Assembly: GCF_028641065.1 (NCBI RefSeq)
Contig: NC_073387.1
Span: 35,836,001 to 35,900,000, forward strand
Length of the DNA stretch: 64,000 bases
Origin: Leucoraja erinacea
Taxonomy: Eukaryota
Reading direction: 5' to 3'
The notes beneath the pieces are model-generated. The model was not told where the DNA came from and searched no databases. It saw nothing but the letters and a program-made list of their open reading frames with translations. The position numbers and the translations under genes were made by a program. Positions 7,011 to 33,083 of the stretch are shown here, piece by piece; positions within the stretch are counted from its first letter, which is position 1, and every line of letters begins with the position of its first letter.

Positions 7011-7918
7011 TCACATATTGGCCATGTACTGCTTCTCCGCAAATGTAACTATCTCCACTGGTCTGGTGCTAATTCTGGCACTACTAGTGGAAGGATGGGC
7101 TGTGTATATATCTTCTGCAGAAAGGCAAAGATCCCTAAGAATTGGAACTTCAAAGCCACTAACTCCTGAATATGGATTACTTTCCATCTCGGAATATGAA
7201 AAGTTAGTTTCTGCAATGAACTGACTGGAGCAGTAAGCTTGTTCCAAAACCTCCTCAGTTACAAGGCTAACCATGGAACTAATATCCTCACTAATTCCAC
7301 CTAAGCTTTTTTGCAATGCTGTGTGCATGTCTTGCAGATTTGTATTGATCTGCTTCAGGCCACTATGGATAGTATTCCATATATTGGCCATGTCCACCTG
7401 AAGTGCTTTTTGGATCTCTGCAAGCCCAATCTTTAGGGCACTCAAATGGTCTGTCATTCCAGCCTGCAAAACATTATGCAGTTCTGCAAGAATGGTTGCA
7501 TGCATGTCCGTTGCACCAGACTGGTTTGTAGCTTGCAGCTTTGCCACATTAAATGGTTCAGCTCCATGCATATCAGTGAAATTCGCATGCATGTGGGCTT
7601 CGAGATCAGCCACGGCAGCTTGTAGGTCCCCACTGATTGCATTCTTAGCCTCTTGTAGCCCCAAGAACAGAGCCTGAATATTCAGATCAAGCAGATCCTG
7701 TGGCATTACAACTTGCATCTGGTGACACCTACGTAGCCTTGCAGATGGTCTGGATACTGTCTCCTCCACCAACTGTGCCACAACTGCCTGTTCTGAGGTG
7801 GCCAGTTGCATTGAACGCTCCTGCAGCACAGGGGACCGTGATGACTCTTGAACTCCTCTGGTAGTTATCTTCATGCTTGATCTAGCTGGCTTCTCCAGCA
7901 CTAATCGGACTGGCACAT
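7011..7918 (-). CDS. Putative TRIM exon 8 (terminal coding exon, about 301 aa): low-complexity linker, 11-residue amphipathic repeat region, C-terminal tail
   Basis: Part of the 309-codon stop-free ORF 7011-7940 in non-repeat DNA. Strong acceptor TTGTCTCTTCCCACCTCCACAG|AT (phase 1) matches the end phase of exon 9677-9738. TGA at 7013-7011. Minus-strand AATAAA just downstream (about 7003-6998). Confidence 0.6.
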
Positions 7919-8164
7919 CTGTGGAGGTGGGAAGAGACAACCATGAAGTTATACCCTTTGATGAGCTCTGGATTTAGCAGTTGCTTCAATCTAGAGAATA
8001 GAATTAATCAAATTGCATTTGGTGTGATGATGATAAAACTATCGATGGCAACAGTAGGCACGGTTCAACGTGTTCAAGTTGAAGGGATGACATGCAAATC
8101 ATAACAGATCACTGCAACAATCTGTTCCACCCATTGTACTCCCAGGGTAACTTTCAGGGCCCAT

Positions 8165-8930
8165 AAGAAACTGCAGATGCTAAAACCTTGAGCAAAAAAC
8201 AAAGTGCTGGAGGATTTCAACAGGTCAGGCAGCATCTGTGGAGGGAATGGGCAGATGGCATTTCGGGTCAGGAGCATTCTTCAAAGCTGGAAAAGAGCAG
8301 CTGAGCTGGGACAAAGCCTGGCACGTGATCTGGTGGATATATGGAGGTGATTGCCATAAGGGTGGAGCATGTCATAAAGTCTAGAGATGAAAAGGAGACA
8401 AAAGGGTGTCAGATAAAGAAGGAAGAGTAAGAATGAAATGTAAAGCCAGAGAGAGGGATATAGGAGAAGAGGACAGGTGGAAGGGAAAAATTGTGGTTAA
8501 AAAGGAAATTGGGAGAGGAAAGGAGCAGGGAGACTGGGGTTTGGGAGATGGTGGGAGAAATGTGTATGCACTGAAATGAGGAGGTGCAATGGAGAAGGGA
8601 GGTAGAAGGGAATACTTGAAATTCATTCTTCATACTGTTGGGTTGTAAGCTACCCATGTGGCTGTTCCTCCAGTTTGCATGTGGCCTCACTCTCACAATG
8701 GAAGAGACCAAGGGCATAAAGGTTGATATGGGAATGGGAAGAGACTTAAAGTGATTCATAATCGGAAGCTCCAGCAAGCTTGGGGAGGGAGCGCATTGGG
8801 TGGAAGTGATGAGTGAACCAAGGAGTTGCAGAAGGAGTGTTCACTATAGAAAGTGGAAAGGAGTGAATTCACGCATGGTGCTGAATATGACATAAAGGGA
8901 TGGATTGGAATTGTGAATTCAGAAGTGCAC
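8165..8930 (-). mobile_element. Degenerate Penelope-like element 3' region
   Basis: GIY-YIG C-terminal remnant (CQ/SEATCKLEEQ..GSLQP-like), purine-rich tract and pseudo-LTR motif gaaactgcagatgct. Confidence 0.7.
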
Positions 8931-8943
8931 AAAACAACATAGG

Positions 8944-9060
8944 ACGGCACAGTGGTGCAGCTGGTAGAGCTTCTGCCTCACAGCACCGGAGCCCTTTGTT
9001 GATCCTGACATCGGGTGCTGTCTGCATGGATAACATAGAACTAGAGTGAACAGGTGATCA
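8944..9060 (+). mobile_element. V-SINE 5' fragment (tRNA-like head)
   Basis: ggcacagtggtgcagctggtagagcttctgcctcacagc head, as in the full copies. Confidence 0.7.
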
Positions 9061-9676
9061 ATTTTCTTAGATATCTTTTCTAAGATATTTTCCTACAATT
9101 TGCTTCTATCAATTTAAGTCTTTGGTTCCAGTTATTTGATTTCTTTACTGTGACGTTGATAATTTTATGTATTGTTTTTATTTCTGACATTGTTTCATGA
9201 TATCACGTTCACATTTACTGTCATGCAAATACATTTTCTTATGTGAACTGTATTTATGAACACCCATGACCAAAGCCATTGCCTTCTGCCATTCAGAATT
9301 ATCTCTATTTTTGATAAATCTTGCTGCTGCATCAGTGAAATAAATGCTTCCTTCTTTTACTTGGGTTGTCGTCTTCTGTATTTTTCAGTAACAATTTCAC
9401 ATTCACTCACAGATATATCATGTTTATAATAAATTTGAATTATCCTGAGTGTTTTATTGGGAGTGGCCTTGCGATAATAAAAATTGAATTATATGACATT
9501 CAGAACAGATGGAAGGAATTCCACAAATTAAAGATACTAAAGATTAGAAATAATTTTGACACTTAGAAAAGGAATGTTTCATGGTTTGAATATAATGATT
9601 ACAACTTGCAGCAAGGTTATTGTTGCCTCAGATTTTTGGGCAGGTTCTCGAATATATATCAGTCTACTTTAAATAC

Positions 9677-9738
9677 CTTTGCAAAACAGAGATGTATACT
9701 GTGTTCTTCTGACCTCTCCAGTGGTACCTGTGGGTTTC
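9677..9738 (-). CDS. TRIM exon 7 (62 nt, phase 2 to 1; KPTGTTGEVRRTQYTSLFCK)
   Basis: T-rich acceptor ttttatttttaaattattatag and donor AAG|GTATTT. It bridges exon 6 (ends phase 2) to the phase-1 acceptor at 7918. All three frames are open, so the frame is inferred from the neighbours. Confidence 0.6.
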
Positions 9739-9869
9739 CTATAATAATTTAAAAATAAAATGTTTGTTAGTTCTCAAGCTCTCCAGGCATTCTTTAAAAC
9801 ACTGCTTCTAATGGAGTGCTATATAGATTAATTATTAATGATTAATTAACTGTTATTGATGGTGTTCCA

Positions 9870-10215
9870 AGAGGCATAGTCATAGAGTCTTACGGTGAGG
9901 AAACAGGCCCCTCAGCCCAACTTGCCCTCACCAGCCAACATGTCCCATCTAACCAGTTTCAGCTGCCTGCGTTTGGCCCATATCCCTCTAAAACTGTCCT
10001 ATCCATGTACCTGTCTAAATCTTTCTTAAACGTTCCTCCTCCGGCAGCTCGTTCCATACACCCACCACCATTTGTGTGAAAAGGTTACTCCTCTGGTTCC
10101 CATTAAATCTTTCCCCCCTCACCTTAAACCTGTGTCCTCTGGTTCTAGATTCCTCTACTCTGGGCAAGATAGTCTGCGCATCTACCCAATCTATTCCTCT
10201 CATGATTTTGTACAT
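9870..10215 (-). mobile_element. CR1 LINE 3' end
   Basis: YKIMRGIDWVDAQTILPRVEESRTRGHRFKVRGERF motif plus 3' UTR. Confidence 0.85.
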
Positions 10216-11839
10216 GTGGTTTTGCATTTATTACAAGTCAGAGTGCAATGTGACAATGGAACATTCAACGTGTATGAATTGTATTGGCATCGTGGCAGCG
10301 AGGTTGTTTCTTCTGTCTGGAGTTCTAGATTTCTGGTTATCTCTACAACCTTTTGGATATCTGAGAAGTATGACCATGCACAAACAGACTCTTCAGCAAC
10401 GTACCAATAAGTGCAGTTGATCTTGCAAAGGTGTATCAAGTATCATGCCTTTGTCCTTCCTGTATCTGATGCCCATATCTGTCTCATCATTAACCATCTC
10501 CATCTTTGGCAATGCTAGATCTGCTTTGTGCCACCTTTCCATTTACACCGGTGGAGATCGCTTGATTCTCAGCAGATGTATTAGGTTAAAGTCTAAAGTC
10601 TAAAGCAAAAGTCTAAACACCAGGCGTAACTGCTGGCTTTATCATTGATGCATCCCTTAGCCTATCTGCAGGCACTTCATTAATAACTTTTCTTCTGAAA
10701 CACATTATTAGGATTGTGGCTGTTCACTGATAATTATCCAGTTTTTAATCTTTACCACCACTTCTCTGGGAATGAACCTATTGACAGGGACCTGTTACAG
10801 AACCTAATATCTAGACTGTGTTGCCATATAACTCGGAACATTCATAACATCATAAATAGTAAAGATCCTCATGAACAACATAAAACACTGTCACTTCCCA
10901 ATGCCATTAATGACATCAAGATCACAAAGACCCCTGTCATCAACACCATCCCTCTGAACAGAAGTGACATTGGACCAGTTATATTGACACTGTTGCAGCA
11001 AGATGAGAGGAAATGAAACAAGGGGATCGATTGTTCATCTCTTTAGGGCTTGAAAGCCTCCCCACATCTACAATGTTCATCTCAGGGATGTGGCACCATA
11101 CTTACAATAATATTTGCCTGGTAGCCTGGTAGCAAAATGAGCAATTTCCCAAGGTTATTTCAATTGCACCCCTCGTAACCTATGAAATATTTCAGCCATA
11201 AAATATTTTATGTGGAATATTAGCTGAGCGTTTTGCTCAAACTAATAGTATAATTGCAAGTAACATTTAACATTTAACATTTTGGGAAGCAGAGACAGGG
11301 CTCAATGACACATTGTTGTACACTAGGAGCTTAGAGGATGTATGCTGGTTTTGTCAGGAAAATACATTATTTTTAGAGTCTACTTGACCTCAATTAAGTA
11401 CAGAGCAATAAAGCTCAGAGTAGCAATTGGTAATGACATCCTAGTTCTCATTGCCTTGGAACATATATTATTAGTCACTTAAATTTCACAAATATTTTTT
11501 CCACAAATTATAACAGTCATTCCAATGTGTGTGAACTAATCGCACTCTCACAAAATGAATGGTAAATATAAAAATAATCTGGCAAATTACTGGAGCGTCT
11601 TGATTAATGATACTATCTGTGCAGACTGAATTCACCAATAAAGATTTTCTATCTATTTTCTGCTTATTCTGAATTTAAAACTATTTTTTCTAATGTCATC
11701 AGGTTGAGTGGCATCACCGTATTAAGCAATCCAACCTTTACTGCTGATATTAGGCAGTAAATTAGTAGACTAGCTTTCAATATCTTGGAAACATAGAATG
11801 GTGGATGGAGGAGAGGAATGTTGGACTGTTGAGGAATGT

Positions 11840-12045
11840 TGAACTCAGTGGGTGAGGTAGCATCTATGGAGAAAAGGAGTAGAGCAACGTTTTGGGTCGA
11901 GGCTGATGTCATGGGAGGGGGGGGGGGGGGGGGGGGGGGAAAAAGAAAGGAAGTGGTAGAGATAGTAGGCTATGTGGGAGAGCTGGGAATGGGAGGGGAA
12001 GGAGGGAGAAAGCAAGGACTACCTGAAATTAGAGGTCAATATTCC
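11840..12045 (-). mobile_element. Penelope 3' fragment with poly-G tract
   Basis: Near-identical to 13150-13370 and 21620-21830. Confidence 0.75.
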
Positions 12046-12079
12046 ACATAAAATGACTGGGGACTTATCTCCTTCACCC

Positions 12080-12600
12080 ATCATGGGTACTCTGGGTGTT
12101 CCAAGGTCGACTGCGAGAGGTGACCCGGTGCACGGAATGGGAGCAGTGGTTGTGTGAAGCAAGGGACGGTGTGTTGGTGGGTCAATGTGTCCTGGTCAAT
12201 GTGTTGGTGGAAAGGGTCACTGAAGGCCCTGCAGCTGCCTGGAGATCCATGGGATCGGGCGCCTCTGAGGTCCCCATAGAGGCAGAGCGCGTGGATCGGA
12301 TGTGGCCTGCAGCGGCATAGAGCGGAGGTGCAGCGGTGGAGGACATCAACAACATCGCCTGGCCAGGCCAACCCCAACAGCTCTGACCCTGTGCTGTCAC
12401 TGTCTTTAAGACCAAGTTTAGACTCTACATGAAACTTGAAGGATGCAAGATGGTGCCAGAAATGTGGCAACTCTAGTGTACCTCCTCACTGCAATCTATT
12501 TTCTTACACTCTTGGACTTAAGTGTACAGCAAGATTTTCACTGAATTGCATGCAAAATTCCACTGTACCTTGGTGCATGTGACAAAGTATCATAAAACTA
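12080..12600 (+). mobile_element. Non-autonomous GC-rich retroposon with LINE-derived tail (unclassified)
   Basis: GC-rich body ending in aattccactgtaccttggtgcatgtgacaa, a tail shared with other elements in the window (e.g. 18260-18300, 33420-33460). Confidence 0.5.
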
Positions 12601-12616
12601 TTGAACTATTACTCAC

Positions 12617-12695
12617 ATGGAGTCTGGCAAATTATCCTCCTCGTTTTCATCTTCCAATGGAACTCTTTCTTCCGATACTTCATCATTTGAATGAA
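12617..12695 (-). CDS. TRIM exon 6 (79 nt, phase 1 to 2; acidic linker VHSNDEVSEERVPLEDENEEDNLPDSM)
   Basis: ttttttacaaacatttag acceptor and GTGAGT donor. Open in the phase required by exon 5. Confidence 0.7.
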
Positions 12696-13152
12696 CTAAA
12701 TGTTTGTAAAAAATTCATTTACAGAACAAGGTTACCAATTTATACTATGTGTTCTTATAGATTTGAGGATTAATTTAATTTATGGTAATAAATCCCGAAG
12801 AAATAAAATCATTTAAATAACCATATCAGATGAGACATGCGTGTAGCCTTTATAGAATATTGATTTATTTCATGTGTTATACGATATCTAAGAAAAAACA
12901 ACACTAATGCTTTCTGCTTATTGTTATCAATTCCTGAACCAGTCACTGATTGTACCTCAGGTCCGGCTTCTCAATTATAGCTATTACATTAATAGACTTT
13001 GTACTGAAATTCCAACTAGCTATTACATTTTTGCACTGTAATAACCACATACATTATTAAGTTGATTACATTTTTGTTTACCATACAATCCATTACACTC
13101 TTTATGTTTTCTGCTCTTTTCATAAAGCAGACTAACGATACTTAGAGAGGGG

Positions 13153-13497
13153 ACAAAAACTGCTGGAGACACTCAGCGGGTGAGGTAGCATCTATGGAGA
13201 AAAGGAGTATGTGACGTTTCGGGTCGAAGGTGATGTCATAGGGGGGGGGGGGGGGGGAAGAAAGGAAGAGGTAGAGACAGTAGGCTATGTGGGAGAGCTG
13301 GGAATGGGAGGGGAAGGAGGGAGAAAGCAAGGACTACCTGAAATTAGAGGTCAATGTTCATACCGTTGGGGTGTAAACTACCCAAGTAAAATATGAGGTT
13401 TTGTTCTTCCAATTTGCGCTGGGCCTCTGGCAATGGAGGAGGCCCAGGACTGAAAGGTCAGATTCAGTTCTGCAGTTCCATCTGCAGCTCCTTCTTA
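13153..13497 (-). mobile_element. Penelope 3' fragment with approximate TSD
   Basis: GIY-YIG C-terminal remnant plus pseudo-LTR. Flanked by aacgatactt(a/g)gagaggg direct repeats. Confidence 0.75.
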
Positions 13498-13619
13498 AAC
13501 GATACTTGGAGAGGGAGTCTGTCTTCTAAGGAACCCATTTAAAAATAAACAGCTCACAAAGCTGCTTAATATCACCTGACATTTCTGCCTTAAATAGCAA
13601 GTACGGCGTACAGAATATA

Positions 13620-13880
13620 TTGATCATCCCCCACCCAAGTCACACTAGCTTCTCGTTTTCACCTAACAAACAGCTAACAATGGCCTGTTTCCTTTATCAT
13701 CATTGCTTTTTTGCATATCTTTCATTTATTGTTCTTTATCTCGCTACATCATTGCCTATATCTCTCGTTTCCCTTATACCTAACCAGTCTGAAGAAGTGT
13801 CTTGATCCGAAACGTCACCCATTTCTTCTCTCCAGAGATGCTGCCTGTCCCACTGTGTTACTCCAGCTTTTTGTGTCTAT
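13620..13880 (+). mobile_element. Penelope pseudo-LTR fragment with hammerhead-like motif
   Basis: ccagtCTGAAGAagtgtcttgatccGAAACGTCacc at about 13785-13820, followed by the gatgctgcctgtcc...ttactccagc tail. Confidence 0.7.
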
Positions 13881-14044
13881 ATTCAGAGAGATCATGGTCC
13901 TGGCCCCATCTTCAACCACAACAAAATACATTTTCTGCTGGTGAAGTATGTGCTTTTTACTGCAGCCAGATTTTCTGGATATATTGTAATCTAGCCAGCA
14001 GGTGTAAAACCATTCACATGATGTTGTCCACAAAAATGTGGACA

Positions 14045-14222
14045 ACATAGAGACATAGAAAAAAGGAGCAGGAGTAGGCCATTTGGCATCTCGAGCCAGC
14101 ACCACCATTCAATACGAACATGGCTGATCATCCAAAATCCGTACCCCATTCCTGCTTTCTCCCCTTATCCCTTGATTCCGTTAGTTCTAAGAGCTATATC
14201 TAACTCTCTCTTGAATACATTC
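14045..14222 (-). mobile_element. CR1 3' UTR fragment in inverted orientation
   Basis: catagagacatagaaa...ggagtaggccatt is the reverse complement of the CR1 tail at 16370-16410. Confidence 0.75.
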
Positions 14223-14239
14223 CAATTTTCTCTCTGTAG

Positions 14240-16410
14240 TCATATGGTGGAGAAATGGAGCAGGGGGACACACTATCAGAATCATTTGGTGAACATGAGA
14301 GAGGAGCTGGCCAAGGTCGACAGGAAAAGGATCCTAGCAGGAATGTTGGTGGAACAGCAATGGCAAGAATTTCTGGGCATAATCTAGAAGATGCAGGATC
14401 ATTTCATTCCAACGAAGAAGAAAGACTTTAAGGTAAGTGAGAGGCAACTGTGGCTGACAAGGGAAGTTAGGGATGGAATAAAACTAAAAGAAAAGGTGTA
14501 TAACATAGCAAAGAGTAGCGGGAAGCCAGAGGATTGGAAAACGTTTCAAAGGACAACAGACGGTAACAAAAAGGGCAATACGGGGTGAAAAGATGAAGTA
14601 CGAAGGGAAGCTGGCCAAGAATATAAAGAATGAGAGTAAAAGCTTCTTTAGGTATGTTAAGAGAAAAAGATTAGTAAAGACAAAGTGGGTCTCATGAAGG
14701 CAGAAACAGGTGAAATTATTATGGGGAAAAAGGAAATGACAGATGAGTTGAACTGGTACTTTGGTTCTGTCTTCACCAAGGAAGACACAATCTCCCAGAT
14801 GTACTAGAGGAGAGTGGATCTAGGGAGACAGAGGAACTGAAAGAAATTTGCATTAGGCGAGAAATTGTGTAGACTGATGGGACTGAAGGCTGATAAATCC
14901 CCAGGGCCTGATGGTCCGCTTCGCAGGGTACTCAAGGAGGTGGCTAGAAATTGTGGATGGATTGGTGATCATTTTCCAATGTTTTATAGATTCAGGATCA
15001 GTTCCTGTGGATTGGAGGGTAGCTAATGTAATCCCACTTTTCAAGAAAGGAGCGGGAGAGAAAATGGGGAATTATAGACCAGTTAACGTGACATTGGTGG
15101 TGGGGAAGATGCTGCAGTCAATTATTAAAGAAGTAATAACGGCGCATTTGGATAGCAATAAAAGGGTTCGTCCAAGTCAGCATGGATATATGAAGAAAAA
15201 ATCCTGCTTGACTAAACTTCTGGAATTTTTTGAGGATATGACAAATAAAATGGATGACGGAGAGCCAGCGGAAGTAGTGTATACGGACTTTCGAAAAACC
15301 TTTGATAAGATCGCACACAGGAGATCAGTGGGTAAAATTAGAGCACATGGTATTGGAGGGTAGGGTATTGACATGGATAGAGAATTGGTTGGCAGACAGA
15401 AAACAAAGATTAGGAATAAATGGGTCCCTGTCAGAATGGCAGGTCGTGGTGAGCGGAGTGCCGCAAGGCTTGGTGCTGAGGCAGCAACTATTTACAATAT
15501 ATATTAATGATTTAGATGATGGGACTAAAAGTAACACTAGCAAATTTGCAATGACACAAAACTGGGTGGCAGTGTGAACTGTGACGAGGATGCTCGGAGT
15601 TTGCAGGTTGACTTGGACACGTTGAGTGTGTGGGCAGATGCATGGCAGATGCAATATAATGTAGATATATGCGAGGTTATCCACTTTGGTGGCAAGAACA
15701 ACGAGGCAGATTATTATCTCAATGGTGTCAGATTAGGAAAAAGGGAAGTGCAACGACACCTGGGTGTCCTTGTACACCAGTCACTGAAAGTAAACATGCA
15801 GGTACAGGAGCCAGTGAAGAAAGCTGGCCTTCATAACGATAGAATTTTAGTATAGGAGTAAAGAGGTCCTTCTGCAGTTGTACATGGCCCTGGTGAGACC
15901 ACATCTGGAGTATTGTGTGTGGTTTTGGTCTCCTAATTTGAGGAAGGACATTCTTGCTATTGAGGCAGTAGGTTCATGAGGTTAATCCCCGGGATGGCAT
16001 GACTATCATATGAGGAAAGATGGGAAAGACTGGGCTTGTATTCACTGGAATTTAGGATGAGAGGTTATCTTATAGAAACGTATAAAATTATAAAAAGGAC
16101 TAGACAATGTAATGCAGGAAAAATGTTCCCAATGTGGAGTCCAGAACCAGGGGCCACAGTCTAAGAATAAAGGGGAGGTCATTTCAAACTGAGATGAGAA
16201 AAAACATTTTCACCCAGAGTTGTGAATTTGTGGAATTCTCTGCTACAGTAGGCAGTAGAGGCCAATTCACTGGATTAATTTAAAAGAGTTAGATAGAGAT
16301 CTAGGGGCTAGCGGAATCAAGGGGTATGGGTAAAAGCCAGGCGCGGGTTACTGATAGTGGATGATCAGCCAATTGGCCTCCTCCTGCACCTATTCTCTAT
16401 GTTTCTATGT
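14240..16410 (+). mobile_element. CR1 LINE (HER1-like), 5' truncated, RT region with frameshifts
   Basis: ORF fragments DWRVANVIPLFKKG, NYRPV, SQHG.MKKKSCLT.LLEFFE, SGVPQG, FTIYINDLDD. Ends in a (tttctatg)n tail. Confidence 0.92.
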
Positions 16411-16544
16411 AACTGGCTCGATGTCACAGCCATATGCATTTTTTTTGAGGTTCCTACTCTAAGTTGCACTGGTGGGTGTTGGAGCTGCAGCCCCAGTCCC
16501 AAAACTCCTGGTGAGGGATATCTTCAGGTGCATACTCTAGGCAG

Positions 16545-16705
16545 CTAAAGGTTTTCTTTGGGAAGGAGTCCTCACCACCCAGTGATGACCCCTTTTCAAC
16601 CAGACCCCCACCTCTTGGACCCCCGGATGGCCCTCTCCCTTCTTTAGACCTTTTTATTACCAACTGCCAACGGGATATCAACCGCCTCAACTTTTCCACT
16701 TCCCT
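16545..16705 (+). mobile_element. Penelope ORF N-terminal fragment
   Basis: Translates FFGKESSPPSDDPF...LPSLDLFITNCQRDINRLNFS, resembling the N-terminal region of chondrichthyan PLE ORFs (recalled, not searched). Confidence 0.55.
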
Positions 16706-18461: not shown

Positions 18462-18598
18462 CAGGGTGATCAAAAATTAGTGTGTTTAACATCTCAAAAA
18501 TCCGTTTAGTTTCTTGTTTAATGGTCGATATTGTAGACTCATCAAGCTTCTTCCAGGAAACCCTGAGTGTTTCTACTTCAGTATTGTTGTTGGAAATC
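18462..18598 (-). CDS. TRIM exon 5 (137 nt, phase 2 to 1; ISNNNTEVETLRVSWKKLDESTISTIKQETKRIFEMLNTLIFDHP)
   Basis: actatttcag acceptor and CTG|GTACGT donor. Open in the phase set by the 23-nt exon. Position fits the TRIM L2 linker exon. Confidence 0.8.
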
Positions 18599-20190: not shown

Positions 20191-21117
20191 GCAACTGGTT
20201 GGCGTTGGCCACTTTCTCCCTCCCTTTGCATTGTGGGAGGTCTGGCCGCCATTGCTGTCCTCACTGCGACGCTGAAAACCAACGCAGAATCACTCGCTGG
20301 AGCTGGAGTAACTCCCTGGAGTAACTCTTGCTTCTTGGTTTCCTGGCCCTCCAAAAATATTCCAAATGGAATTGAAACTAATGGACCCACCACCACCAAA
20401 CTCCAAACTCTGAAAAATAACAGCCTATTGCATTTTATCTGTTTATTTAATGTGTATATATATATATTGTCTATGGTATATAGACACACTGAACTTTTAT
20501 CTCCTGTTCTGTATTATGTTTACATATTTTGCTGTGCTGCAGCAAGCAAGAATTTCATTGTCCTATCTGGGCCACATGACAATAAAACTCTCTTGACTCT
20601 TGACTTGAACTTAAGCAAAAAAGGGTTTGTGGGAAAAAACAGCCACCTTAAATTTAGTTGCATCTGGTTGGGTGCCTATGGTAGGGTGAAGACTATTCCA
20701 TGCTTTAATTGTGCAGGGGGATCTCCATGCAGCAGCCAGCATCTCTGGATGGAAGAAATTGGGTGACGTTTCGGGTAGAGACCCTTCTTTAGATTTCCTC
20801 TGGTTTTAATGTTTTTAGTTTAATTTAAAGATACACCATGGAAACAGGCCCTTCGGCCCACCGAGTCCATGCCGACCACTGACCACCCATACACTAGTTC
20901 TATCCCACACATTAGCGACGCAAGTTAAGAGTCAAGAGTGTGTTATTCTCTCACGTCCCAATTTGAACAATGAAATCCTTATTTACAGCAGCACAACAGA
21001 ATATGTAAACATAGTACTCTGTAAACAATGTTATAAACGAGAAAACAAATCTCCATACAGACAGCTCCCATATTCAGGATCAATTCCGGGTCTCTGGCAA
21101 TTTTAGGCCGCAACTTT

Positions 21118-22056
21118 ATGGCCAGCGAAATACGAGGTGCAGTTCCTCCAATTTGCGGTGGGCCTCACTCTGGCCATGGAGGAGGCCCAGGACAGAAAGG
21201 TTGGATTCAGAATGGAGGGGGAGTTGAAGTGCTGAGCCACCAGGAGATCAGGTTGGTTATTGCACACCGAGTTGGGCAGCTGTTGGGCGAAGCGATCGCC
21301 AAGCCTCCGATTGGTCTCACCGATGTAGGGCAGCTGACGCCTAGAGCAGCGGATGCAATAGATGAGGTTGGAGGAGGTGCAGGTGAATCTCTGCCGCACC
21401 TGGAAATACTGCTTGGGTCCTTCAATGGAGTCAAGGGGGGAGGTAAAGCAACAAGTGTAGCATTTCCTGCAGTTGCAAGGGAAAGTGCCAGGAGAGGGGG
21501 TGGTTTGGGTTGGAAGGGACGAATTGACCAGGGAGTTATGGAGGAAGCGGTCTCTGCAGAAAGCCGACAGGGGTGGAGATGGGAAGATGTGGCCAATGGC
21601 GGGATCCCGTTGGTAGACAAAGCTGGAGAAAATCAGCGGGTGAGGCAGCATCTATGGAGCGAAGGAATAGGCGACGTTTCGGGTTGAGACCCTTCTTCAG
21701 ACTGATGTCGGGAGGGGTGGGGGGCAGGAAAAAGAAAGGAAGAGGCGGAGACAGTAGGCTGTGGGAGAGCTGGGAATGGGAGGGGAAGGAGGGAGAAAGC
21801 AAGGACTACCTGAAATTGGAGAAGCCAATGTTCATACTGCTGGGGTGTAAACTACCCAAGCAAAATATGAGGTGCTATTCCTCCAATTTGCGGTGGGCCT
21901 CACTCTGGCCATGGAGGAGGTCTAGGACAGAAAGGTCGGATTCGGAATGGGAGGGGGAGTTGAAGTGCTGAGCCACCGGGAGATCAGGTAGGTTATTGCG
22001 AACTGAGTGGAGGTGTTGTGCGAAGCGATCGCCAAGCCCGCACTTGATCTCACCGA
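21118..22056 (-). mobile_element. Two Penelope 3' segments in partial tandem (GIY-YIG region plus pseudo-LTR)
   Basis: ORF 21103-21651 contains NLIYCIRCSR..LPYIGET.RRLGDRF (GIY-YIG). A second copy of the same C-terminus lies at 21820-22056. Confidence 0.9.
21669..21705 (-). ncRNA. Minimal type I hammerhead ribozyme-like motif in PLE pseudo-LTR
   Basis: Minus strand tcagt-CTGAAGA-a-gggt(ctca)accc-GAAA-CG-TC-gcct. Confidence 0.6.
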
Positions 22057-22771
22057 GGTTGATCATACGCTGAATAATCCAACCAGATTTTTGTTTGGAA
22101 GTGGAAAGAGATATAATAGAAATTGCATTAATTGCAACGTGTAAAAAGAGTTCAGATACTGTATTATAATTTTGCTGCATGTTATTGTGGTATATATCAT
22201 GTCTTGATTGGTGAATATGTTTAGTTTGCGACTTTACTTGAAGCAGAAATAATATGTGAATGCTTCATTGACCATAATTCTGACTGGTAACTACGCACTT
22301 CGTCCGAGCACATTATCGCACGCGTCATGCAAGCCGTCTTAAATGACCACCTAAACTGTCATTTGGCAACCTAAAAAGCTGCCGAGGTTGCCCGGCTGGC
22401 AACAGGGTAAAAACGTTAAGTGAGAGCCCTGTAGTTCTATTTTGTATTTTTATTCACGAGGAGGGATTTTCAGATTGCTGAATACATTTTGAGACCACGC
22501 TTTATGCCATGCTGCACCTGACTTATATAACCTGAAGGGATCAGCCCAAACAATTTTTCTTCTGACTGATACAACATTGACACAATCCGTCACCCCCTGC
22601 TTGAAACTAGGAAAGGACTTTTTATGGTAGTCATGGATTGGGCGTAGATTGAAGGGAAGAGTGAGTTGTGCTCTCGTCATTATTGTGGAGACAAAGGTTA
22701 CTTGATACATGGGTTGCTTGGTCTTGATCGATAAACCAAGATGGTTAGAATGCAACAGGAAATTTATCATT

Positions 22772-22905: not shown

Positions 22906-22970
22906 TCATTGTTCTACCGAACAGGCTAGGTTAAAATTCATCTTTTTGTTTGTGTTGTGCAAATTCCTAC

Positions 22971-22993
22971 CTTTCATAAGTAGACTTGAAATC
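22971..22993 (-). CDS. TRIM exon 4 (23 nt, phase 0 to 2; DFKSTYER)
   Basis: gtttatttattttccag acceptor and AAG|GTAGGA donor. A 23-nt micro-exon is characteristic of vertebrate TRIM genes. Confidence 0.88.
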
Positions 22994-23887: not shown

Positions 23888-24121
23888 CTTAATAAAGAAC
23901 AGCGGGTCTTTCTGATTTTTCAGGTCTTGGACTTCCTGAATAAGATGAGTAATAACTTCTCTTTTAATTTCTAATTCTTGGATCTTCTTCAAGACTTTTG
24001 AAAGGTTTATGTTTTTCTCTGTTATAACTGTGTCCAAGATTTGCTTTTCTTGCTTGGTTAATAGCATTCTAATTTCTTGAAACAAGTCTGAAATTTGTTT
24101 CCTCAAAATAGCACTGTCTTT
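23888..24121 (-). CDS. TRIM exon 3 (234 nt, coiled coil; KDSAILRKQISDLFQEIR...QKDPLFFIK)
   Basis: T-rich acceptor ending ttttacag, donor AAG|GTAAAA. Heptad-rich helix. A 231/234-nt size is typical of TRIM coiled-coil exons. Confidence 0.92.
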
Positions 24122-25590: not shown

Positions 25591-26066
25591 TTCTCTGCGA
25601 TCATTCCACCTTAATGACATCTTTCCGACAAAACATTGACCAAAGTTTAACATAATGCTCCAAGTGCGGCCTCACCGATATCTTGAACAATTGTAACATA
25701 ATGTCCCACCTTCTACCTCAATTCCCTGACTGAAATGTGTAAGCATGCCAAAGCCTACTTCATCACCCTATCTACCTGTTGATGTCACTGTCAGGGAACT
25801 ATATGCTTGTACTCCTAAATCCCACAGGAGCCTACAGTTCAGTTTAGTTTATTGTCAGGTTTACCGAGGTACAGTGAAAAACTTTTGTTGCGTGCTAACC
25901 AGTCAGCGGAAAGACTGTACATTATTACAATTGAGCCATTTACAGCGTATAGATACATGGGAAGGGAATAACGTTTAGTGCAAGGTAAAGCCTGTAGTCC
26001 GAACAACGATAGTCCGAGAGTCACCAATGAGGTAGATAGTAGTTTAGGACCACTCTCTACCTGTGG

Positions 26067-26510
26067 CAGGCATGGAAATCGCTATCAAAATATGGGGGGG
26101 GGACAGGGGGGACTCAATTTCTTGGCGGCCGCTCGCGCATGCGCACAGTTACACACACACGCGAGGCTTCAGAGGCTTCAGCCGTGGGCCCTGAGAACAG
26201 TAATTACAGCTCAATCCAGTACTAAATGCAGCTCAACTATGCCTGTCTTGCCAGGTTAAACTACAGCCCTGCCTGGACTGGCGGGACATCAGCCTGGAGT
26301 CGTGGAGCTAGCGCTGCTTCTCCGCGCTGGCTGTAAACCTGGGCTGTCGCTCCCGTAAGTCCAGGCAAGGTTGTAGGTTAACCTGGCTGGACAGGCAGAG
26401 TTGAGCTGGGTTTAGTGCTGCTTCTCTGCGCTGGCTGTGGGCCTGGGGGCACCGATTACAAAAAAAATGGGGGGTATCGTTCCCCACCTCTCAAAAAAAG
26501 GGGGGGGGGG
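26067..26510. mobile_element. Probable truncated DNA-transposon (hAT-like MITE) fragment
   Basis: Starts CAGGCATGGAAATCGC, GC-rich, with poly-G subterminal motifs. No matching right end or TSD found. Confidence 0.35.
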
Positions 26511-27245
26511 TGGACTGAGTATAAATAAGCATGTTAGGCACACTACTGGGCACAGGCCTGCGCTTCCACCATCATCATCGGCTGTCACACAAAACGAGTA
26601 TGACTGTCCTCTCATGGAGGACGCTTGTGCTGACTTTGTTTAACGTGGGAAGATTGGTGCACAAACAGCCACCACATGGTCCTTCAAAGATCGGGGTCAG
26701 GATCCAGTGGAAGCACTTCCACCACTACCCTCAAGTTCTTCTTGGAACGCATGCAATCTAACCTTCCAGAGCAGCCTACCATGCCAATTTCCGGTTGCTT
26801 GGTATCAAAGATAGATGTTCCGCAGTCCATGAGAATCTCAGCATTTGTGCCCTAGCTCCATATATAATGGTGGCTGGTAAACGTCAACACACAGGTTTGG
26901 GGTTGATGTATTACAGATCACTTGGAAATCTGTGGTGGCATTCTCTGTGTGAACTTCCAGGCATTATATTGGTTAAGAGTAGTCATAAGATTATTTACAA
27001 AGATATGGCAATGGTAGGCTGATTGGTCCTTATAGTTGTGGATTTCTCACACTGCAAGGATGTCTGTGTTTTGAGTCCAACATGTTTGCCAAATACTCAC
27101 ACTTTCCCCAGGAAGTTTCCCGCATTAAGTTGGAGGATTCTAATTGTAAACTTATTTATTGGGAAGATTGGGCCATTACCCTGATGATTGTTGATCAAAG
27201 CAATTGAGTTGATGCCCATTAAACCATATAAAGGTTGCCATTTTC

Positions 27246-27555
27246 TGCACGGTGGCGTAGTAAAGGCACGGTAAAGTCGCTGCCTTACAGCGCCAGAGAC
27301 CCAGGTTCAAGCCTGGCTATGGGTGCTGTTTGTACGGAATGTGTGTGTTCTCCACGTGACCTGCGTGGGTTTTCTCTGGGGGCTCTGGTTTCCTCACACA
27401 CTCCAAAGACATACAGGTTTGTAGGCTAATTGGCTTGGTAAAGTTTTAAATTGGCCCTGGTGTGTAGGATAGTGTAAGTGATTGCTGGTTGGAGCACACT
27501 CGGTGGGCTGAAGGGCCTGTTTCCACACTGTATCTCAAAACTAAAAAACTAAAAA
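27246..27555 (+). mobile_element. V-SINE (HE1-like)
   Basis: tRNA-like head, central ggtttcctc(c)cacactccaaagac core, CR1-type 3' end and (aaact)n tail. Confidence 0.85.
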
Positions 27556-27764
27556 TATCCTTTAATACAAAATTTCTCTCAGATTTGTGCAGATTTGAAA
27601 TTTATAATTGAATTAGCATCAATCACTTTATGTGGCTAACATTTTAAAGGGTTAGATATTTCATACTGAAAGGCCTGTCTCAATTCTGGGCTCTATCCCC
27701 TAATGCTAGACTACTCATTGAGTAGAAATTGTTTTGAACTCTTTTCCCTCAGTATCAGTGAATA

Positions 27765-27904
27765 TCTTTGGGGTGGAAGATTGCAACCTTCACGTGGTCC
27801 GCCCTGTTTCGACTAATGCAATCAACCCGGCGTGCATAATCAAATAAGATCAAATAGAACAAGTTTACAACTTTAGGCTGTGCACGCCATAAGCAAGAAG
27901 AAGA
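27765..27904 (+). mobile_element. Short 5'-truncated retroposon with (AAG)n tail and 8-bp TSD
   Basis: AGTGAATA at 27757-27764 and 27905-27912. Ends gccataagcaagaagaaga. Confidence 0.7.
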
Positions 27905-28566
27905 AGTGAATACCTTTAAAGATTCAATGAGAGAAAACCTTAACTTGTTAAATTTTAAGGAATCCAACCTCAATTTGTGTAATACATCTTCATTGCTTAA
28001 CATTTGGAGACTCGTATCATCTGTAATTATTCAAGCCTTATATATCTTTACAAATCTGCAGTGCCCAATAGTGATCACAATGCTATAGTTGTGTTCTAAC
28101 TCAAGCTTTGTATAGCTTTGTATCACTAAAACCATAACTTCTAGTACCTTCTAGTACCTTATATTCTCACCCTTGAGACAAAAAAATATAATTTCCATTT
28201 ACCATTACCATATACCATTTCGCTCAACACTGGCTCTCTGTCCACCAAGCCCCGCTGGAATTTCCGGTAGCTAATCATTTTAACCCCCTTTCAATTCTCA
28301 TAATGACCTTTCGGTGCATGGACTCCTCCATTGCCAAAGTGAGGCCACGTGCAAACTGGAAGACCAACACCTCATACCATCGCTGCCCCTCCTATCGTTT
28401 TCCTGCACCTTCCCCACCCCCAGCACCTTCCATCATATCTCACTACCCCAGTCATCCTTCTCCTTTCCCCTTCTTTGTGAGCTCCCACCTGCATTTTGCG
28501 TCTATCTTCGGTTTAAACTAGCATCTGCAGTTCCTTCCTACACATTCAGAAACAATGATTTCCTTC

Positions 28567-29776
28567 CTACCACTAACTTCCATCCGGCACTCAAATACAC
28601 CTGGACCATTATCGACACTTCCCTACCATTCCTTGACCTCACTATCTCCATTGCAGGTGATAGACTTCTAACCGACATACACTATAAACCCACTGACTCC
28701 CATGGCTATCTGGACTACACTTCTTCCCACCCTGCTTCCTGTAAGGACTCCATCCCCTACTCCCAATTCCTCCGTCTACGCCGCATCTGCTCCACGGATG
28801 AGGCGTTCCACACCAGGACATCTGAAATGTCCTCACTATTCAGGGAACGGGGGTTCCCCTCCTCCACCATAAATGAGGCTCGCACCAGGGTCTCCTCCAT
28901 ACCCCGCAACACTGCTCTCTCTCCCCATCCCCGCACTCGCAACAAGGGCCGAGTCCCCCTAGTCCTCACCTTTCACCCCACCAGCCATCACATACAAAAA
29001 GTAATCCTCCGTCAGTTTCGCCACCTCCAACGTGACCCCACTACTCGCCACATCTTCCCATCTCCCCCCATATCTGCCTTCCGCAAAGACCGCTCCCTCC
29101 ATAACTCCCTTGTCAATTCTTCCCTTCCCTCTCGGTCCACCCCCTCCCCGGGCACTTTCCCTTGCAACCGCAAGAGATGCAACACTTGTCCCTTTACCTC
29201 CCCCCTCGACTCCGTTCAAGGACCCAAGCAATCGTTCCAGGTGCGACAGAGGTTTACCTGCATCTCTTCCAACCTCATCTATTGCGTCCGCTGCTCTAGA
29301 TGTCAGCAGATCTATATCGGTGAGACCAAGCGGAGGTTGGGCGATCGTTTCGCCGAACACCTCCGCTCGGTCCGCAATAACCAAGCTGACCTCCCGGTGG
29401 CTCAGCACTTCAACTCCCCCTCCCACTCCGCCTCCGACCTCTCTGTCCTGGGTCTCCTCCATGGCCACAGCGAGCAGCACCGGAAATTGGAGGAACAGCA
29501 CCTCATATTCCGTTTGGGGAGTCTGCACCCCGGGGGCATGAACATCGAATTCTCCCAATTTTGTTAGTCCTTGCTGTCCCCTCCCCTTCCTCAGCCCCCC
29601 TGCTGTCTCCTCCCATCCCCCAGCCTTCCGGCTACTCCTCCTTTTCCCTTTCTTGTCCCCACCCACCCCCGCCCCCGATCAGTCTGAAGAAGGGTTTCGG
29701 CCCGAAACGTTGCCTATTTCCTTCGCTCCATAGATGCTGCTGCACCCGCTGAGTTTCTCCAGCTTTTTTGTGTAAC
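28567..29776 (+). mobile_element. Young 5'-truncated Penelope-like element: RT C-terminus, linker, GIY-YIG endonuclease (open to stop at 29567) and pseudo-LTR; 14-bp TSD
   Basis: LPFLDLTI, YKPTDSHGYLDYTSSHP, C.R.RCNTC zinc linker and NLIYCVRC...YIGETKRRLGDRFAEHLRS. TSD CAATGATTTCCTTC at 28553-28566 and 29777-29790. Confidence 0.95.
29680..29714 (+). ncRNA. Minimal type I hammerhead ribozyme-like motif
   Basis: cagt-CTGAAGA-a-gggt(ttcg)gccc-GAAA-CG-TT-gcc. Confidence 0.6.
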
Positions 29777-30419
29777 CAATGATTTCCTTCTCTTGATTTG
29801 TTTCTCTGGATTGTTGCTGGCATCAAGAAATAGGATGATGGGTAATAAAAAAATGAAATAAAGTTGCATTCTAATTGATTTTCTGGGGCTGCAGAAATTC
29901 TTTTTGAAAATGATTAATTGGGGTGATTTGAAGAAGAATAAATTAGGATGAAAATTTCAATATTCCCCTTCCAATAATCAATGTACACTATTAATTACTG
30001 TTATGTCTTTCCTCATGTTGTTACTTGTTACTATAAATGTATTCATTGGTCAAAAAAGGGGAGTAAAAATTTAATAGTTGATGACAAAAGCATATCATGA
30101 ATGAAAAATATATGAATAGATAATGCATTGATTTTCCGTGGCATTTTTTATAAATCAAGTAAAACTGGTCATGAGGTTCTGCAAGTTTCTTCAGACCTGT
30201 GGCCGTATCTCCAATAGGAAACAGTATGAACAATTATTTGTGACATTTTTGAAGATTTCAATTGATTGAGAATCCACCAGAATTTTGTTTTCTCAATATT
30301 TTTGTCATTGCACCTATTTCTCAGCTTCTTTCCAATTTATTAATTCAATTTTAAGGACACTGTCTGTCCTTATCGGTGTCTTCCACTTCTATGTTTCTGT
30401 GTTCAGTTAGATGGACTCA

Positions 30420-31800
30420 AAACAGACATGACTACATTGACCCGGGTATCCGTGCGGACTGAAGAACATCATCACCTGTAGAAATGTACTCCACCACAAT
30501 CTGTCACCTCAATACCCAACATACCCCTCACTGTCATTAATATCAGGCCTGGAGATTAACCCTGATTCAATGAGGAATGTAGAAGGTCATGCTGGGAACA
30601 CCACCAGGCATTCTTTAAAAAGAGGTGGGTCCTGTTGAAATGTAGTACAAGGCTCTAAGTGCACCATACAACAAAAGCAGTTTGCAATAGAGAAAGCTAA
30701 ATGAACCCACAACCAGCTTATCACATTAAGATCTGCATTCTTGCAACCTCTAATCATAAATATTAATAGATAATTGGATAGTGGGAGGCAGACATTCCTA
30801 GACCTCTGCATCCTCAATGATGGTTGGGCTCATTTTGTGAGTAAGTGGTACAAACTAGGCTGAAATACTCATAATCATGTTCAGCACGATGTATTGAGTG
30901 GATGGTCCATCCTGGCCTCCGTCTGAGATGCCACCATCACAGAGCCAAGTAAATGCTGGGAACATTGGATGCAACCAAGGATATGGACCAGATAATAGGT
31001 GAGACTAAGCGGAGGTTGGGCGATCGTTTCGCAGAACACCTCCGCTCGGTCCGCAAGAACCTACCTGACCTCCCGGTGGCTCAGCACTTCAACTCCCCCT
31101 CCCACTCAGAATCCGACCTCTCTGTCCTGGGTCTCCTCTATGGCCAGAGTGAGCAACACCGGAAATTGGATGAACAGCACCTTATATCCCGCTTGGGGAG
31201 TCTGCATCCTGCAGGCATGAACATTGAATTATCCCAATTTAATTAGCCTTGCTGTTTCCTCCCCTTCCTCAGCCCTCGGGCTGTCTCCTCCCATCCCTCA
31301 GCCCTCGGGCTCCTCCTCCTCCTTTTTCCTTCCTTCTCCCCGCCACCCCCTATCAGTCTGAAGAAGGGTTTCGGCCCGAAACGTTGCCTATTTCCTTCGC
31401 TCCATAGATGCTGCTGCACCCGTATCTTGTATCTTGGACCAGATAATATCCTGACTAAGGTACTGATCACTTAGATTCTAGAACTGGTCGCTTCTGTAGC
31501 CAAGATATTCCAGTACATTTATATTGACAGCATGTTCCAAAAATATCGAACATTCCCCAGGCTTATCCTATTCACAAAAAGCAGAACAAATCCAATCTTG
31601 TTTATACCCCTCCATGTCTCACACTTAAAATATATCACCATTCCATCATCAATGGTAAGTCTAAACCTTGGAACTCCTTCACCAGATGCATTGTGAGAGC
31701 ACCTTCACCCGAGGTGTGGTGCAAACCACTAAGATGGCTCACCGCCATGCGGGAAGGAAATCATTTCGGGAAATTGGTGTGGACAAATGTTGGAGATGGG
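30420..31800 (+). mobile_element. Old CR1-clade LINE remnant, interrupted by a PLE
   Basis: With the PLE removed it reads LDATKDMGPDNILTKVL...LELVASVAKIFQY, resembling the KAxGPDNIP...LAKLFQ motif upstream of LINE RT. Confidence 0.5.
30998..31434 (+). mobile_element. Penelope 3' fragment with 14-bp TSD
   Basis: GETKRRLGDRFAEHLRS... followed by a pseudo-LTR with a hammerhead-like motif (31354-31388). TSD TGGACCAGATAATA at 30984-30997 and 31435-31448. Confidence 0.92.
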
Positions 31801-32283
31801 TGGGGTAATAGCCCGGTGAGGCAAATATAAAACATAAGTGATCTGGAACTGGGGCACGAGACAATGGGTTAAGTAAAGACTGGGAACAAACATGGACATT
31901 ATACATTCAGGGACGAGAGACGTAGGATGTAATAAGCTCCATCAAGTAACATGTTGGTGTGGAGAGAGATTATATTATCGCGCTGGGACACTGGCAGTTT
32001 TGTAAATGGTTGCATTTCATTCACAGCATTTAAAGAAGCAACACAAAAAATCCAATCTTTTATCGTTGTATTTTTCTTGTTTTGCTGGTGAATGTTATTT
32101 CTGGGCTTTTTCTGGTACTATGAATTATCAAGAGGTTTCTCATATATACGTCTTGCAGTAAGTGGATCGGGTTACCAATGGTTACCAACGTTGGTGTACT
32201 TGCTTATCACTTCACAAGAAATATATGAAATGTATCACTAATCAGACAATACATTAAAAAGTAGCATATTACCACAGATTTAC

Positions 32284-32379
32284 CTTTAAGTTCACTTCAG
32301 TTCCTTGCAATTCTTTTGTAGCTTCCTCTAAGGTTAGTCTGCAGCTCTGCAGATTCTCCAGTTTCTCGGAAAGGCTGGC
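32284..32379 (-). CDS. TRIM exon 2 (96 nt, coiled-coil start; ASLSEKLENLQSCRLTLEEATKELQGTEVNLK)
   Basis: cttttaacag acceptor and AAG|GTAAAT donor. A 96-nt phase 0-0 exon is characteristic of TRIM genes. Confidence 0.92.
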
Positions 32380-32510
32380 CTGTTAAAAGATCACTGTACC
32401 AGTTATAGTAAAATGTATTGTTAAACATTAAAATGTGTACAACGGATTATTTTATAATCAATGTGGCATACCTGTAATTTTACCACTTGACATTTTACAA
32501 AATCTCTCAC

Positions 32511-33083
32511 CTTTGTCTCATTGTGTATGTCTTTTAAAATGCGTATGTCATGGTTCTTATGTGGTCCAGCAACATAGCATGTCACACAGATACAGGAATG
32601 GTCATCTAAGCAGTAATATTCAATTAGTTTCTCATGATCAGAACATTTTCTGTCTTCCAGTGAACTTGCAGGCTCAATCAGTAGGTGGTTTTTCTGAGCA
32701 GCTTTCTCAGAGTGCTTCCTCAAGTGATGTTCACATAAAGAGGCTTCACAGTTCATACATGTCTTCACTGCAGGGAGAGGACTATCCAAACAGAAATCAC
32801 AGAAGATTTTAGGTGGTTCTTCGTTCATCTGGGTGGCTTCAAAACGTTCTATTATGTTACTTAGTTTCAAATTTTTGTGTAGTATAGGTTTCTGAGCATA
32901 CTCTGCACGACACTCTGGGCAGGAATACCCTGGCCCAGTATCTTTTTTGTCCCAGTTCTTTTCAATACAACTACGACAGAAGTTGTGCCCACAGGACAGT
33001 GAAACTGGTTCGGTGTATATATTCCAGCAAATTGAACAATTTAATTCTTCTTTTAAATTACCAACAGCTGAAGTAGAAGCCAT
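32511..33083 (-). CDS. TRIM first coding exon: RING finger, B-box1, B-box2 (TRIM16/TRIM25/finTRIM-like architecture; putative E3 ubiquitin ligase)
   Basis: EELNCSIC...LSCGHNFCRSCI...CPECR (C3HC4), CDFC...CMNCEASLCEHHL..H...H, CSDH...YC...CVTC....H..H. Donor AAG|GTGAGA at 32510. Alternative ATG at 33089. A possible acceptor at 33112-33114 implies an upstream non-coding exon. Confidence 0.97.

Follow-up and report, generated by a model that had tools for sequence, protein, structure and literature searches.

Several TRIM proteins are known with their B30.2 domain replaced, such as zebrafish ftr06 (chromodomain) and ftr52 (RanBD-CypA) and primate TRIMCyp. As described in PMC3137616, their new C-terminal module was gained when an exon was inserted downstream of the RBCC region; the same source describes class IV TRIM genes as duplicating and fast-evolving. 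Class C-V, on the other hand, comprises RBCC proteins with an unclassified C-terminal region and is presented as a residual, non-monophyletic class (PMC10445537), and TRIM8, at 10q24.32, is listed as R-B1-B2-CC-nd (PMC2533329). C-terminal swaps are familiar in TRIMs, mostly with parts whose fold is known. The gene analysed here, from the little skate Leucoraja erinacea, carries an unclassified part instead. Among the titles and opening lines of abstracts listed in the literature, none describes the gene or this module, and none of six locus or protein identifiers occurs in the main texts covered. A B30.2-less TRIM is a known kind of protein, and it is the helical mobile module on it that is apparently undescribed.

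The reading that we favour, with moderate confidence, is that of a single-copy, slow-evolving, B30.2-less chondrichthyan TRIM with two spliced ends, the longer of which carries a shuffled helix that would act as a self-assembling coiled-coil rod.

Gene model and predicted alternative C-terminal ends

The gene lies on the minus strand of the window, i.e., the whole 64,000-nucleotide stretch that was analysed. The eight exons proposed by the first-pass annotation, with their sizes, their GT-AG boundaries and an in-frame product of about 703 aa, were reproduced exactly: joined, they give 2112 nt, or 703 aa plus a stop in an uninterrupted frame. Coding exon 1 (32511..33089) contains the RING, B-box 1 and B-box 2 recognised by Pfam. 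From the ATG at 33083 it measures 573 nt (33083-32511), while the in-frame ATG at 33089 yields the 705-aa RefSeq protein (XP_055498998.1/XP_055498999.1, Leucoraja erinacea). An acceptor-like AG just upstream suggests that 5' non-coding exons may precede it. The coiled coil is encoded by exon 2 (32284..32379, 96 nt) and exon 3 (23888..24121, 234 nt). They are followed by exon 4 (22971..22993, 23 nt), by exon 5 (18462..18598, 137 nt), whose fold-back helix follows the coiled coil (331-353 in a model of low confidence), by exon 6 (12617..12695, 79 nt), an acidic linker, by exon 7 (9677..9738, 62 nt), also linker, and by exon 8 (7011..7918, 908 nt). This chain corresponds to the little-skate RefSeq isoform X1, with 302/302 residues of exon 8 identical to the RefSeq protein.

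Exon 8 is predicted to yield two gene ends through one splice choice, the evidence for both isoforms being the genome sequence and RefSeq's automatic models. About 6% of one raw RNA run, from another species, placed 0 reads on exon 8, which does not bear on its splicing. The part common to both (7733..7918, aa 404-465) begins at a phase-1 acceptor and ends at an internal donor, GTAGGT, after 7733. Read through, the exon continues into the helical module (7239..7733, aa 466-630 in the 705-aa numbering), which includes ten 11-residue repeats (7568-7239), and then into a variable tail with the stop (7011..7238), coil in the predicted model; an AATAAA directly past this stop (6999..7004) is a candidate poly(A) signal. 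Spliced at the internal donor, exon 8 joins three further exons to give exactly the 549-aa RefSeq isoform X2, which ends in a short acidic tail and has no helical module. These are exon 9 (2250..2325, 76 nt) and exons 10 and 11 (G000:C11:35835717-35835659 and 35831713-35831595), all exact matches to X2, the last two lying left of the window and finishing 4.4 kb from it. The first-pass claim of a novel end overlooked a second, annotated one. The "novel ~300-aa domain" of that claim has no curated family match, but it is not one domain: the C-terminal ~300 aa divide into a shared linker of ~62 aa, a helical module of 11-residue repeats (~165 aa) and the variable tail.

Both ends are found beyond the skate. 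Annotation of the long form extends to Chiloscyllium, Callorhinchus and two species of Scyliorhinus, and models from sharks, rays and chimaera show the acidic-tail end. The annotated stingray and devil-ray models stop 11 aa past the exon 8 donor and the zebra-shark model 5 aa past it; going by these annotated models, the module may have been lost in some lineages.

Absence of B30.2 and conservation of the gene

RING, B-boxes and coiled coil follow one another at the N-terminus in the order that defines a TRIM (RBCC) protein, the Pfam RING and B-box matches being above their cut-offs and the TRIM_CC match below. PRY/SPRY was not found in the protein of either isoform, and a search with a single skate B30.2 ORF, covering the window and 100 kb on each side of it (264 kb), found no B30.2 (best tblastn E 3.0; best HMM E 0.76). 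The earlier statement that the window has no PRY/SPRY thus holds over a larger region, which includes the left flank where a B30.2 exon had been thought worth seeking; no downstream B30.2 exon was found within 100 kb on either side. No PRY match near the locus was among the genome candidates listed, 150 of 247 of which were scored.

The gene lacks the C-terminal PRY/SPRY that class C-IV requires. Its RING-B-box exon is nonetheless followed by the 96/231-234/23-nt exon series of that class, and the first-pass view of this series as typical of class IV is borne out by two skate PRY-bearing TRIMs on C29 that share it as 96/234/23 nt, their 23-nt exons coming from a permissive exon scan. The shared series fits a class-IV-type ancestry, and an RBCC-B30.2 ancestor would have lost its B30.2 before the chimaera-shark split. 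As it now stands, an RBCC with an unclassified C-terminus, the gene belongs with class C-V. A PDE6A exon lies ~72 kb left of the window on the opposite strand, a neighbour that fits the 5q/10q paralogon, as would suit a possible TRIM8 ohnologue. In a tree of exon 1 (27 rows) the deep forks stay open, whereas four orthologues form a clade with 100/100 support and branches of 0.066 or less; the TRIM8-like row from C15 is a long branch that does not join the gene.

Conservation is high at the N-terminus. The RBCC is 90-98% conserved across chondrichthyans, and the RING and B-boxes are 92% identical between skate and chimaera, with a conserved RING motif; we infer E3 activity for the product. The next skate paralogue is only 47-51% identical in exon 1, and the gene is thus neither multi-copy nor fast-evolving as finTRIM/btr-type genes are. 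The "immune-type" part of the first-pass description is weakened by this single copy and by the RBCC conservation.

The module itself is under purifying selection. Its identity between skate and sharks is 66-69%, and 49% to chimaera, while the variable tail keeps 27-44% among orthologues. Across 7733-7014, three DNA runs gave 17 synonymous versus 7 non-synonymous distinct changes among those listed (pN/pS 0.11, binomial P 3e-7, a ratio uncorrected for transitions and transversions), and 0/10 of the listed indels fall within exon 8. When a bony-vertebrate orthologue was sought with aa 300-705 as query, 8/8 matches, among lengths 387-1234, were chondrichthyan. Since identity in chimaera still reaches 49%, the module is old, and on sequence grounds its acquisition is older than the chimaera split and is not peculiar to this paralogue, as first proposed, or to this species. 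Sharks and chimaeras separated about 420 million years ago.

These results also bear on the suspicion that the read-through part represents leftover transposon or viral sequence, or an annotation artefact from intron retention, and that the 549-aa form alone is of importance. It does sit behind an internal donor, two unrelated genes carry it as an optional end (Narcine X1 versus X3) and it is possibly lost in some rays. Nevertheless, the read-through part has one DNA match in the skate genome, it keeps an open frame from skate to chimaera, and the 8 matches found among 1.84 billion representatives are all (8/8) named chondrichthyan TRIM-locus or Ig-five-transmembrane (Ig-5TM) proteins. It is therefore not multi-copy, decaying or element-like in the manner of a transposon ORF, in agreement with the checks on copy number, constraint and relatives that the first reading had proposed. 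The module had no match in phage records or viral contigs. An origin from Harbinger Myb/SANT genes was tried and rejected, with no match in 15 skate loci of 3.2 kb each. We regard this explanation as very improbable and its "non-functional" form as largely refuted; a very old captured element is a possible origin of the module.

Structure of the module and its other bearers

The module has the properties of a hendecad helix, with hydrophobic residues recurring every 11 positions along a long helix. The helical period is 3.63-3.66 in 10/10 module homologues, self-similarity is maximal at lag 11 in 3/3 modules, and in the repeats Gly occupies position d while a/e/h are taken by large hydrophobic residues. 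An AF2 monomer of 201 aa consists of two long helices only (35-80 and 97-199; pLDDT 66, pTM 0.34); the full-length monomer (pLDDT 35) was not used for folds. No clear fold match was obtained: Foldseek returned nothing at E 0.001 or better for the module model (best E 2.4), and the module profile, run against PDB sequences, gave 2 matches only (E 1.4 and 1.7). Structural alignment with VIA-align recovered only helical bundles of a generic kind (best Z 8.9, rmsd 3.4-3.8, 158-168 aligned, 6-10% identity), matches below the tool's meaningful level for helices, from which fold novelty does not follow. The best ESM Atlas feature scores, 0.75 and 0.82, are leads only.

On the preferred reading, the module would most likely serve as a rod for coiled-coil assembly and not as a pocket for substrates. 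The first-pass proposal of a new substrate-recognition arm is not supported, a long repeat helix being more typical of an assembly rod. A quite unlikely alternative is that the 11/3 amphipathic helix binds membranes, lipid droplets or lipoproteins and so brings the ligase to a lipid surface, in the style of perilipin, synuclein and apolipoprotein. A period of 3.66, the Gly/Ala-rich flanks and weak Pfam Apolipoprotein (PF01442) matches in 5/8 module members (best E 0.0014) would suit such a helix. However, the skate module stays at 18.8 bits where the curated cut-off is 90, the repeats have a net acidic character (2-6 K/R versus 6-10 D/E per 66 aa), the face edges have no fixed Lys, and the core is made of large Leu/Ile/Met.

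The module is not restricted to the TRIM. A homologue, 32/77 identical in the repeats, ends an unrelated shark and ray protein predicted to have a signal peptide, an Ig domain, five TM helices and then the module as its tail. A related module probably ends a skate TNFR-like gene: its six repeats alone are matched in score by 27-47/300 shuffles, whereas the whole module, at 76 bits, is reached by 0/500 block shuffles (maximum 72) and 0/500 column shuffles (maximum 50). In this gene, on C30, the CRD exon is predicted to join the module exon at 15288069/15290917. It has a signal-like start and no TM exon was found in it, so that it looks secreted. In TRIM, Ig-5TM and TNFR-like genes the module is attached at a phase-1 junction in all three, and as a terminal exon of that phase it may have been shuffled between the TRIM, the Ig-5TM protein and, probably, a secreted TNFR-like protein. 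Such an unclassified part, kept since before the shark-chimaera split and present on unrelated proteins, points to a lineage-specific mobile domain.

The hosts seem to lie in different compartments (cytosolic TRIM, post-TM tail, TNFR-like chain), a distribution easier to reconcile with an autonomous assembly unit than with a pocket for a specific ligand. An unlikely rival takes the module as a like-with-like tag, by which the long TRIM isoform co-assembles with the Ig-5TM tail, or with another bearer, and ubiquitinates it. The idea makes the earlier substrate arm concrete. The TRIM and Ig-5TM modules are both predicted to be cytosolic, resemble each other in the repeats, and are found together in Scyliorhinus torazame and in Chiloscyllium plagiosum. 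B30.2, which is also found on Ig-TM butyrophilins, has a similar host range. Lamprey, for instance, has TNFR_c6-PRY/SPRY fusions (PMC11788884). Against this, the TNFR-like bearer looks secreted, and in the skate no Ig-5TM module was found, either in G000:C138:80001-210000 (an unplaced scaffold) or genome-wide (12 candidates scored), yet the skate TRIM module is constrained and thus needs no such partner. A broader version, which we consider unlikely, is that of a chondrichthyan mobile helix shuffled onto TRIM, Ig-5TM receptor and soluble TNFR, assembling like with like, with the splice switch controlling the docking of the ligase to the receptor tail; its host set would be much like that of B30.2 in other vertebrates. 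A homotypic tag, if real, would connect a ligase with a receptor in a manner that is new.

Under the preferred assembly-rod reading, the module of the long isoform would bundle with its own copies and cluster TRIM dimers, letting their RINGs pair and ubiquitinate, while the short isoform, devoid of the module, would present its acidic tail. In other TRIMs clustering is driven by the B-box or by the target. An autonomous oligomerisation rod would show TRIM clustering without a B30.2 target and provide a natural multimerising tag, and a soluble TNFR bearing it would be a pre-assembled decoy.

Comparison with known systems

Human TRIM25 is the RBCC's best relative of solved structure (4cfg; E 4e-36, aa 12-343). 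Within the TRIM25/TRIM16/finTRIM-type class C-IV, the skate gene shares its exon series with the skate PRY-bearing TRIMs, and it differs from the class in being B30.2-less, single-copy and strongly conserved in the RBCC. With TRIM8 and class C-V it shares R-B1-B2-CC without a recognised C-terminal domain, and RefSeq labels several of its orthologues "TRIM8-like"; nevertheless, the skate has a separate TRIM8-like gene on C15, presumably recognisable as TRIM8 by its N-terminus, the tree does not join the two, and the module profile has no match in 60 kb at that locus. Hendecad coiled coils and amphipathic 11-mer helices have in common with the module the 11-residue period and an all-helical model, but the module scores far under the cut-offs of Baculo_PEP_C (PF04513; 22.3 bits for the skate module versus 38) and Apolipoprotein (19 versus 90 bits). 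Finally, ftr06, ftr52 and TRIMCyp resemble the skate gene in that a new module entered downstream of the RBCC. They captured known globular domains recently, whereas the skate module is an unclassified repeat helix that predates the chimaera split, is optional by splicing, and is shared with unrelated membrane or secreted proteins.

A TRIM gene with two predicted alternative ends

The eight minus-strand exons proposed for the TRIM gene at window 7011..33083 (573, 96, 234, 23, 137, 79, 62 and 908 nt) have the expected sizes and GT-AG ends, and they splice into 703 amino acids without a single stop; RefSeq XP_055498998.1 of the little skate is the same chain with two extra N-terminal residues, which bears out the open chain of the first-pass annotation. 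RING and B-box families score above the Pfam cut-offs, and the closest solved structure to the RBCC part is TRIM25. The reported absence of PRY/SPRY also holds on a wider scale: no B30.2 turned up when the window plus 100 kb on either side (264 kb) was searched with a skate B30.2 ORF (best E-value 3.0 by tblastn and 0.76 by HMM), nor did any PRY near the locus among the 150 of 247 candidates scored in a genome-wide search.

The long and short isoforms are predicted from the genome sequence and automatic RefSeq models. The long one (X1, 705 aa) would read through a donor inside exon 8 (7918-7011), located after 7733, while splicing there to three further minus-strand exons (2325-2250 and two just left of the window) yields isoform X2 (549 aa) with every residue matching. 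Annotated models of the long form exist for Chiloscyllium plagiosum, Scyliorhinus canicula, S. torazame and the chimaera Callorhinchus milii, whose model contains both the module described below and the acidic tail. This tail is also found in models of catsharks, zebra shark, bamboo shark, white shark, sawshark, stingray and devil ray. The acidic last exon (aa 505-549 of the short isoform) combines a basic patch with a conserved Tyr; its sequence is 80-86% identical among sharks and clearly retained in the chimaera, and it may be the real conserved binding motif of the TRIM.

Upstream of coding exon 1, two short tandem-repeat tracts (34310-35020) adjoin an N run (33559-33724). Retroelement-like ORFs, presumably ordinary LINE, Penelope, Gypsy and DIRS types, are found at 14887-15855, 21037-22264, 28284-29678, 44584-45452 and 51552-52172, and in flanking stretches L011-L012 and L022. 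To the left of the window, at a distance of about 72 kb, is the first exon of PDE6A (L010:7311-7847, plus strand). Two long minus-strand ORFs 43-49 kb to the right (L017:2826-3860 and 7931-9349) are taken by us to be PPARGC1B-like, with no tool match found for them; this block is presumably paralogous to the human 10q23-24 region with TRIM8.

The 11-residue-repeat module of exon 8

Identity to orthologues of four species is 92-98% in the RING and B-boxes, 90-94% in the coiled coil, 43-82% in the shared part of exon 8, 49-69% in aa 466-630 and 27-44% in the last 70 residues of the long form. Residues 466-630 (window 7239..7733) form a helical module, whose C-terminal two thirds are filled by ten 11-residue repeats. 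Positions a, e and h are occupied by Leu, Ile or Met, position d is mostly Gly, and all ten homologues have a hydrophobic period of 3.63-3.66. AF2, run on an 8-sequence alignment, predicts two long helices without a globular fold (pLDDT 66, pTM 0.34).

Variation in exon 8 was taken from three DNA runs, one at an identity of at least 99% and two at 95-99%. None of the ten indels listed falls inside the exon, and the distinct changes listed in the long-form extension comprise 17 synonymous versus 7 non-synonymous ones (pN/pS 0.11 with P 3e-7 from a plain site count). The extension DNA is single-copy in the skate genome, which argues against a multi-copy transposon ORF, just as the pN/pS points to purifying selection. 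Since it is conserved, free of the listed indels and single-copy, the extension is a real, old coding module under constraint, and it is very improbable that the open read-through is non-functional or element-derived. Beyond the donor, the stingray and devil-ray models continue for only 11 aa and a zebra-shark model for 5 aa, which weighs against an essential role of the module.

Other proteins bearing the module

Among 1.84 billion representatives searched, eight matched, four from the TRIM locus and four (30-39% identity) from an unrelated family, to which all six matches among 8000 scored candidates in a profile search of longer proteins also belong. Its members, here called Ig-5TM, begin with a signal-like sequence and an Ig domain; five predicted transmembrane helices (above threshold, four in three of four sequences and five in Narcine) follow, then a Thr-rich stretch and the module. 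The layout is, we presume, CD47-like; no matching sequence was found. Module-bearing members occur in four shark genera, a sawshark and the electric ray Narcine, whose models show the same alternative of module versus short acidic end. The TRIM and Ig-5TM repeats align without gaps (32/77 identical), with a score reached by 0, 0, 0 and 1 of 300 whole-repeat shuffles. The skate member of this uncharacterised family (G000:C138:194905-178755, minus strand; L035, L037, L040, L043, L048-L050) appears to finish in a short acidic exon, without the module of the shark and Narcine members; none turned up in G000:C138:80001-210000 or genome-wide, with 12 candidates scored.

A third skate copy (C30:15290917-15291662) lies in frame after three TNFR-type exons, all phase 1, in a gene model built in the present analysis. 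The predicted chain has a signal-like start and cysteine-rich repeats (Pfam TNFR_c6; best PDB match HVEM/TNFRSF14), and no transmembrane exon was found in the gene. This copy reaches 76 bits on the module profile; in two sets of 500 register-keeping shuffles the maxima were 72 and 50. Because six repeats taken by themselves do no better than shuffled ones, the homology is rated probable, not certain. The module exons of all three hosts attach at phase 1, in agreement with exon shuffling. The whole predicted TNFRSF14-like gene (G000:C30:15283246-15291662, plus strand; L028-L029) runs from cysteine-rich exons into a stalk and the module in frame, and its product is a candidate for a soluble TNF receptor that multimerises by itself. 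Some 25 kb upstream there is a second TNFR-type gene (L025), and a cyclin gene is located 7 kb downstream. Elsewhere, an ORF of 588 codons, rich in Ser, Thr and Pro and with an 11-residue-type helix at its end (G000:C3:81074398-81076161, plus strand; L115), is a possible fourth, diverged bearer; it scores 18 bits on the module profile, under the means of the register-keeping shuffles.

Proposed role and comparison with known TRIMs

A self-assembling coiled-coil rod is the reading that we favour, with somewhat better than even confidence, because of the long repeat helix, the apparent location of the hosts on either side of the membrane, and the retention of the module on the TRIM of the skate, where none was found for Ig-5TM. 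In the long isoform, such a rod would cluster TRIM dimers and thereby favour RING pairing, clustering of this kind being general TRIM behaviour. The homologous modules could instead be like-with-like tags bringing the ligase to the Ig-5TM tail, which is a less likely reading; a lipid-binding 11/3 helix appears slightly less likely still. None of the titles or abstract openings listed by literature searches describes the gene or the module. The notable part is an apparently undescribed mobile 11-residue-repeat module rather than the loss of B30.2.

Judged by its sequence, the gene would function like a TRIM E3 scaffold and would fall in residual class C-V, as defined in PMC10445537. It is not a member of class C-IV, although its 96/234/23-nt-type exon series points to a class C-IV ancestor. 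The earlier interpretation is supported in part: B30.2 is absent and the coding module is under constraint, but the gene does not look like an immune TRIM expansion. Exon 1 shares 47-51% identity with the next skate paralogues, and in the exon-1 tree the orthologues make up a 100/100 clade with short branches and no sister fixed. Distinct from this gene, at least seven nearly identical TRIMs with two B-boxes form a young cluster (G000:C13:54.13-54.19 Mb, C90 and C965; 100/100 clade), which is likely the finTRIM-like expansion of the skate. Among known systems, TRIM8 is likewise R-B1-B2-CC with no known C-terminal domain (PMC2533329). C-terminal replacement is known in ftr06, ftr52 and TRIMCyp (PMC3137616), and TNFR-PRY/SPRY fusions are reported for lamprey (PMC11788884).
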